Shown piece by piece: positions 2,890 to 3,458 of a stretch of DNA of 5,205 bases; positions within the stretch are counted from its first letter, which is position 1, and the number at the start of each line of letters is the position of its first letter. Made by a program: the position numbers and the translations under genes. The stretch is taken from positions 1-5,205 of the IMG/VR virus record IMGVR_UViG_2693429662_000020. The stretch is one strand, 5' to 3'. Under the pieces are notes generated by a model. It saw only the letters and a program-made list of their open reading frames with translations, ran no database searches and was not told the DNA's origin. Source of the DNA: a virus (lineage: Duplodnaviria; Heunggongvirae; Uroviricota; Caudoviricetes).

Positions 2890-3052
2890 TCTTTAAAATA
2901 CCTGACATGTAATACAGAAAAAACACAAAACCATACCTTAAATAAAAACCTCATCATCAAGCAGATATGCATGGATAAACTACAAGACGAGATATAAACC
3001 ACCCTGCATTTAAATAAACAATAAACAACATCAGAAAAATAATTCTGCTCTA

Positions 3053-3082
3053 TGGTTTACAATCAAAAATATCATTTATACT
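3053..3082 (+). promoter_or_regulatory. Candidate sigma70 promoter for the orphan ORF (-35 TGGTTT or TTTACA; -10 TATACT at 3077-3082)
   Basis: The -10 hexamer TATACT matches consensus at 5 of 6 positions. The -35 is weak or mis-spaced (15 or 18 nt). AT-rich DNA produces such matches easily, so this is low confidence. Confidence 0.25.
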
Positions 3083-3122
3083 TTTCAGAACATCACCAGC
3101 AAGGCATAAACAAGGAAACTAA

Positions 3123-3458
3123 ATGAAGTGGATTGTGATTGATACAGTTATCCAGCCATCATGCGGAATATCTTTTTCAGTCATATGGAGTAAAATAAAA
3201 TTAATAATCTGGTATCAATCGGATGCTTTCTTACCTCCTGAAAGTATATTTACACTGACTCACACAGGCATCATGCTCAATAACAAAGTGCTACCTGTAA
3301 CCATTTACAACGTAGTACCATTCAATAAAACATTCTGGAATTTAATCAAAAACAGCCAGGAATGCCCTACAAATACAGATAACGTATTGAATGAATGCTT
3401 TAATAACCGTTGCACTCTGCAAATATGTCCTTATGGGCTAAAACAACAAAGTCCATAA
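3123..3458 (+). CDS. Hypothetical orphan protein, 111 aa, AT-rich codon usage, Cys-rich C-terminus
   Basis: It is the only ORF of at least 60 codons in the AT-rich island, where stop codons are frequent (rough chance of 111 stop-free codons about 2e-4 per start). SD AAGGA at 3112-3116 sits 6 nt before the ATG. I recognise no homolog. It is convergent with the phage late genes. Confidence 0.45.

Follow-up and report, generated by a model that had tools for sequence, protein, structure and literature searches.

The ORF at positions 3123-3458 (plus strand) of the window, by which we mean the whole stretch of 5,205 nucleotides analysed here, is iraL, an already known prophage gene encoding an anti-adaptor of RssB. 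We put at about 0.9 the probability that it is a moron with its own promoter, the product of which would block RssB with a barrel domain and thereby stabilise sigma-S. The coding sequence starts with an ATG at 3123, ends with the stop codon at 3456-3458 and specifies an IraM-family protein of 111 aa that is identical at 111/111 residues to CFT073 C_RS06710 (WP_000871291.1), encoded in the potB-island prophage. This is the CFT073 gene that Hryckowian et al. 2014 named iraL (PMC4045071). Moreover, 335/336 nucleotides of the coding sequence are identical to CFT073 iraL, which places this copy in the iraL allele group as the same study defines it, by a nucleotide identity to CFT073 iraL of 95% or more along the entire coding region (PMC4045071). 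The product also matches the NCBIfam family NF007393 (anti-adapter protein IraM) over residues 1-110 with 162 bits against a curated cutoff of 121 (E 4.7e-48), and a search of the PDB matched it to 8twd_A, which is IraM(1-78) bound to RssB in the crystal, at E 9e-32. Protein identity to K-12 IraM is 62%, and we therefore rejected an assignment to IraM sensu stricto (the K-12 type, which calls for an identity of 95% or more to K-12 iraM and for its upstream region). Many complete E. coli genomes have this ORF annotated as IraM by RefSeq, and the iraL region was found in 2860/5426 complete genomes of the species.

The earlier note had described the ORF as an orphan, a label that does not hold given that the family is curated, a structure has been solved and the function has been published. 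The impression is explained by Pfam-A, for which our hmmscan returned no family up to E 1; it was NCBIfam, PHROGs and the PDB that resolved the identity, the PHROGs match being to phrog_4407 (unknown function). A precomputed table assigns PF11183 (PmrD) to close homologues, unlike our own empty scan. The frame itself, its ATG at 3123, its 111 residues and the cysteines C81, C92, C97 and C102 are all seen in the sequence as previously described, together with a further cysteine at position 14 that had gone unmentioned. Chance ORFs of at least 111 codons arose in 23/2000 shuffles of the block 2878-3749, and the GC content of the ORF is 35% versus 55% in the adjacent esterase gene. A reading of 3123-3458 as a spurious ORF was rejected.

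The start of the transcript can be placed from published data. 5′RACE of the CFT073 iraL mRNA gave the 5′ end ACATCACCAGCAAGGCATAAACAAGGAAACCA (PMC4045071), and its first 30 nt match positions 3090-3119 of the window exactly; transcription here would therefore start at A3090. This leaves a 5′ UTR of 33 nt (3090-3122, plus strand) with a Shine-Dalgarno sequence, AAGGAA at 3112-3117, lying 5 nt 5′ of the iraL ATG. The start site in CFT073 is of the sigma-70 type and was mapped in mid-log phase (PMC4045071). By our own reading of the hexamers, the promoter occupies 3056-3082 (plus strand) and consists of TTTACA at 3056-3061, a spacer of 15 nt and a −10 element TATACT at 3077-3082. A consensus promoter scan did not flag it, owing to the 15-nt spacer. 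By eye, one GGTTTA half-site of the kind that makes up a PhoP box is present at 3054-3059. From −100 to +33 the window is identical to CFT073 at 130/133 positions (97.7%), and identity across all iraL copies in the promoter and upstream region is at least 96% (PMC4045071). Thus the promoter too places this copy in the iraL allele group, which is defined by at least 96% identity to CFT073 and the same transcript 5′ end. The three substitutions relative to CFT073 are T>A at 3062, directly 3′ of the −35-like TTTACA, G>A at 3089, which is position −1, and C>T at 3120, between the Shine-Dalgarno sequence and the ATG; the promoter hexamers and the Shine-Dalgarno sequence are unchanged. Some published iraL copies carry a point mutation in the −35 element (PMC4045071). 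When the 133 nt upstream regions of K-12 iraM and iraL were set side by side, unaligned, no similarity was evident.

Residues 1-78 (3123-3356, plus strand) correspond to the RssB-binding core. In the AF2 models and by Foldseek this part is a PmrD-like antiparallel beta-barrel with a hairpin and one helix. Using an alignment of 46 sequences, AF2 gave a mean pLDDT of 83 for the protein and 10-residue block means of 85-95 within the core, whilst Foldseek matched the model built from a 12-sequence alignment to 8twd_A at E 2.8e-9 (TM 0.90 by target, rmsd 1.3 Å). The IraM-RssB crystal structure defines 14 RssB-contacting residues of IraM (PMC10844676); across clusters I-III, 10/14 are identical in the iraL product and the remaining four are conservative replacements (T13S, L75I, H63N and I64V). 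Because the core fold and the RssB-contact residues are kept, the published mechanism most likely operates here. As a moron-type gene in the late region of a lambdoid prophage, iraL would be driven by its own sigma-70-type promoter from the start at 3090, and the barrel of residues 1-78 would bind RssB, which as an adaptor brings RpoS (sigma-S) to the protease ClpXP. With the barrel domain occupying it, RssB would be unable to hand sigma-S over to ClpXP; sigma-S would then be stabilised even during exponential growth, and expression of the general stress response would be higher in the lysogen.

Published work has already established what the identical protein does, and as a gene this iraL copy adds nothing new. 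[quoted passage not shown] The earlier suggestion that the gene is expressed in the lysogen is supported through the identical CFT073 gene, by its mapped start and by the drop in sigma-S on its deletion (PMC4045071), and it is on this basis that we infer expression of the copy in the window.

The surroundings of iraL are those of a prophage late region. Relative to iraL, the esterase, holin and YdfR genes are on the other strand, as is the tRNA. Divergent from it is a gene for a NanS-p-type sialate O-acetylesterase (1006-2877, minus strand; DUF1737, SASA and DUF6645 by Pfam and by RefSeq annotation of near-identical loci). On the other side, a tRNA-Arg (UCU) of the late-region tRNA cluster was found by ARAGORN and Rfam at 3750-3826 (minus strand), and a terminator scan placed a terminator-like hairpin after it, at 3735-3718. 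An intact locus that is 98.7% identical to positions 632-3865 carries along its minus strand first a Q-type antiterminator, a methyltransferase and tRNA-Ile/Arg/Arg, then iraL on the opposite strand, and onward the SASA esterase, holin, lysozyme, Rz and terminase, an arrangement also found in CFT073. For the holin gene (640-933, minus strand) the longest ORF has 97 aa, the Pfam holin domain begins at residue 31 and RefSeq gives 71 aa (216 nt); the real start is probably an internal Met codon at about 855.

In the window, homology to the intact locus stops after 3865, where an insertion sequence with a DDE transposase ORF and terminal inverted repeats begins (3866-5203, minus strand), which we take to be IS186 from its transposase and repeat sequences. 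It disrupts a second tRNA-Arg gene, of which just the 3′ 26-28 nt are left (3838-3865), and separates iraL from the expected Q/pR′ region; the window ends 2 nt past the end of IS186 (segment 3838-5205). At the other extremity, an IS1 end occupies 1-127, downstream of ydfR and about 184 bp upstream of the position corresponding to the lysozyme start in CFT073, and thus the lysis cassette is interrupted as well. None of the complete E. coli genomes had both IS junctions, their best coverage of the window being at most 72%, and exact searches of species-representative genomes for the IS186 and IS1 junctions found no match. The prophage here is probably defective.

Convergent with iraL is a gene for an sRNA of the STnc100 family (3484-3673, minus strand), which matches Rfam RF02076 with 132.4 bits against a gathering threshold of 47 and covers model positions 1-206 of 206. 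By scan and fold, its terminator is a hairpin at 3514-3493 followed by a U-tract (−20.3 kcal/mol, z −3.2). Between the iraL stop codon and the sRNA 3′ end there are about 26 nt, and the terminator hairpin is about 35 nt away from that codon. No U-tract follows the hairpin when it is read in the iraL direction, and iraL transcripts may therefore run on into the sRNA gene. The hairpin and conserved blocks are common to CFT073 and to an Stx2a phage, where they lie just downstream of stx2B. A 2026 preprint, in which neither iraM nor iraL is mentioned, links STnc100 to the PasD sRNAs and notes an association of the related PasA and PasD sRNAs with esterase genes. RefSeq annotates a partial 'hypothetical protein' pseudogene at 3529-3654 (plus strand) in near-identical loci, which is probably spurious since it falls wholly inside the opposite-strand STnc100 sRNA and has no PHROGs match.

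Several other readings of how this copy is expressed have to be weighed against an autonomous, working iraL. An upstream ORF of 24 codons in the ORF list (3052-3126, plus strand) does exist as claimed previously, with an ATGA that overlaps the iraL start, and it could be taken for a translated leader coupled to iraL through this overlap. However, this ORF opens, with the ATG at 3052, 38 nt before the mapped start site (3090) and overlaps the −35 region; it would therefore be absent from the iraL mRNA, and it has no Shine-Dalgarno sequence of its own. The doubt that had been voiced over any coupling was justified, and we rejected a coupled leader as contradicted by the 5′RACE result and extremely improbable. 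Nor does a silent relic of a decayed prophage seem at all likely. IS186 and IS1 flank the region, there are three promoter and 5′ UTR changes relative to CFT073, and the whole window is found in no complete E. coli genome, all of which speak for decay, but the ORF is uninterrupted, its product does not differ from the functional CFT073 protein, the hexamers and Shine-Dalgarno sequence are preserved and the promoter is autonomous.

A further proposal concerns prophage induction, upon which convergent Q-dependent late transcription, being antisense to iraL, would shut the gene down. Late transcripts of lambdoid phages are modified by Q and resistant to terminators. Q and pR′ lie outside the window, and their position is taken from near-identical prophages. 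In the intact relatives, the stretch from the Q antiterminator to the lysis genes has iraL as its sole gene on the opposite strand, and late transcripts must therefore cross it. The antisense geometry accordingly stands for the intact prophages, whereas in the window the late region is broken, with IS186 between the late promoter region and iraL and IS1 in the lysis cassette. Because of these interruptions late transcription may not occur here at all, the capacity for induction may be lost and the scenario drawn in the earlier note may not apply to this prophage. A more general form of the proposal is antisense cross-regulation between iraL and the STnc100-family sRNA, for which the sRNA terminator within 26-35 nt of the iraL stop codon and the hairpin that lacks a U-tract in the iraL direction both argue. 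Against shutdown, antisense transcription alone is no proof of repression, and a literature search found no strand-specific expression data. From gene orientation, damping of iraL on induction is plausible, if possibly moot here, and we regard the proposal as a whole, shutdown or cross-regulation, as rather unlikely. An iraL gene transcribed from its own promoter is the reading that we retain.

The C-terminal tail of the protein (residues 79-111; 3357-3455, plus strand) contains C81, C92, C97 and C102 and a CPYG motif. About 8% of protein shuffles place four cysteines within 22 residues, so clustering in one sequence is weak evidence and it is conservation that counts. No variation was seen in 12 Escherichia-group homologues at C81, P82, C92, C97, C102, P103, Y104 and G105. 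Against 1.84 billion representatives, a full HMMER search yielded 95 relatives. Among an unselected set of 55 relatives with lengths of 100-175 aa, the columns of C81, C92, C97 and C102 hold Cys in 51, 45, 46 and 45 sequences, respectively, which is comparable to the best core residues W30 (52/55) and W3 (49/55), whilst the RssB contact W22 is kept in 3/55. The relatives without these cysteines have wholly diverged tails that look like frameshifts. Across the 46 intact relatives, reaching down to 20% identity, C81, C97 and C102 are the sole invariant columns and C92 is conserved in at least 90%; these 46 sequences are spread over the Enterobacterales, with Salmonella, Citrobacter, Enterobacter, Intestinirhabdus, Cronobacter, Dryocola and Pantoea among their sources. 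The consensus in these relatives is CPGN-x8-C-x5-C-x4-CP[YF]G, compared with CP-x10-C-x4-C-x4-CPYG here; of 44 parseable tails among the 46, 28 have a cysteine spacing of 10/5/4 and 7 more have the Escherichia-type 10/4/4. Conservation on this scale indicates that the tail cysteines are under strong selection. The family-wide conservation contrasts with the structural paper, in which the IraM tail is described as less conserved and flexible and was removed for crystallisation (PMC10844676). The earlier note had made its domain depend on the cysteines recurring in homologues, and they do. The structure prediction that it proposed gave a confident core, as above; the tail came out with moderate confidence.

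The tail could thus be a small zinc-binding or redox-sensitive module controlling the stability or activity of the anti-adaptor, which would add to the function of IraL and not replace it. The near-invariance of the four cysteines and their mostly fixed spacing (10/5/4 or 10/4/4) point this way, as does the retention of the cysteines in relatives where W22 has gone. The tail pLDDT, below 50 with 12 close homologues, is 57-74 with the 46-sequence alignment and reaches 70-74 for residues 91-110; likewise, full-length IraM is proteolytically unstable on purification (PMC10844676). On the other hand, IraM 1-78, from which the tail has been removed, still forms a stable complex with RssB (PMC10844676), the shallow alignment leads AF2 to predict disorder and the spacing contains no CxxC pairs. 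Searching the PDB with a tail profile gave as the best match, and sole lead, a CCCH zinc finger at a non-significant E of 0.36, with no stretch passing alone. A CCCH-type zinc finger was rejected on that value, the likeness in spacing being merely a lead. Literature searches on Cys, zinc or redox roles of IraM and IraL found nothing relevant, including no metal or redox chemistry, and no function assigned to the tail of either protein was found. We consider a zinc or redox module possible, with the odds somewhat against it. More distant members, in which W22 is rare but the cysteines are kept, may bind their partner differently or act on another target, judging from their alignments.

CFT073 iraL is the same gene by protein, coding sequence, mRNA 5′ end and promoter region, and occupies the same slot, with tRNAs on one side, esterase, holin and YdfR on the other, and iraL on the opposite strand. 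It differs from the window in the three promoter and 5′ UTR positions given above; in addition, the esterase gene is full length here and truncated in CFT073, the DUF3927 gene of CFT073 is absent here, and IS186 and IS1 have inserted nearby here. K-12 IraM (YcgW; PDB 8TWD) belongs to the same family, fold and length class and shares all four tail cysteines, the CPYG motif and the 10/14 identical RssB contacts. It is an RssB anti-adaptor induced by PhoPQ and low Mg2+, whereas the inducing condition of IraL differs, and K-12 iraM lies at a different locus, next to e14, behind an upstream region with no evident similarity. Salmonella RssC is a further IraL/IraM-like anti-adaptor, with about 49% identity at the gene level (PMC4045071).

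Stx2-converting phages carry an IraM-like gene that occupies the corresponding slot in the same orientation, flanked by stx2B and the nanS-p esterase gene. The encoded protein has 107 aa versus 111 and is 75% identical to IraL (80/107), and the conserved sRNA and terminator blocks are again found downstream of the gene. These phages differ in the promoter sequence and in having stx2AB in the adjacent slot. In the Stx2a phage EH2201 an IraM-family gene is located at 4615-4938, directly downstream of stx2B on the opposite strand; it is annotated as iraM in Stx2_EH2201, whilst many Stx2 phage records have no annotated feature for it. A literature search for iraM in Stx prophages found no functional study. 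PmrD (PDB 4HN7, 2JSO and 2RQX) has the same beta-barrel-plus-helix fold (Foldseek E 6e-4, TM 0.74 by target), and both it and IraL are small proteins that bind the receiver domain of a response regulator. However, PmrD is a connector protein that protects phospho-PmrA and thus has another target, its length is about 85 aa, identity is 14% and the four-Cys tail is missing. A reading of the iraL product as a PmrD orthologue was rejected.

Taken together, iraL and an STnc100/PasD-family sRNA gene face each other with their 3′ ends in the slot occupied by stx2 in Shiga-toxin phages. This slot therefore gathers several host-regulating elements. IraL lets some pathogenic E. coli and Shigella hold RpoS high during growth, and its region is present in over half of complete E. 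coli genomes. Among the intact relatives, the four-cysteine tail is the most conserved feature of the IraM/IraL family across Enterobacterales, and we tentatively suggest that it may act as a zinc or redox sensor determining how long the anti-adaptor lasts or how active it is, although this is more doubtful than not. If so, the stability of RpoS would be coupled to metal or oxidative status. A tail that is conserved family-wide and yet was cut from the sole crystal structure should therefore be of use to those who study RpoS proteolysis.
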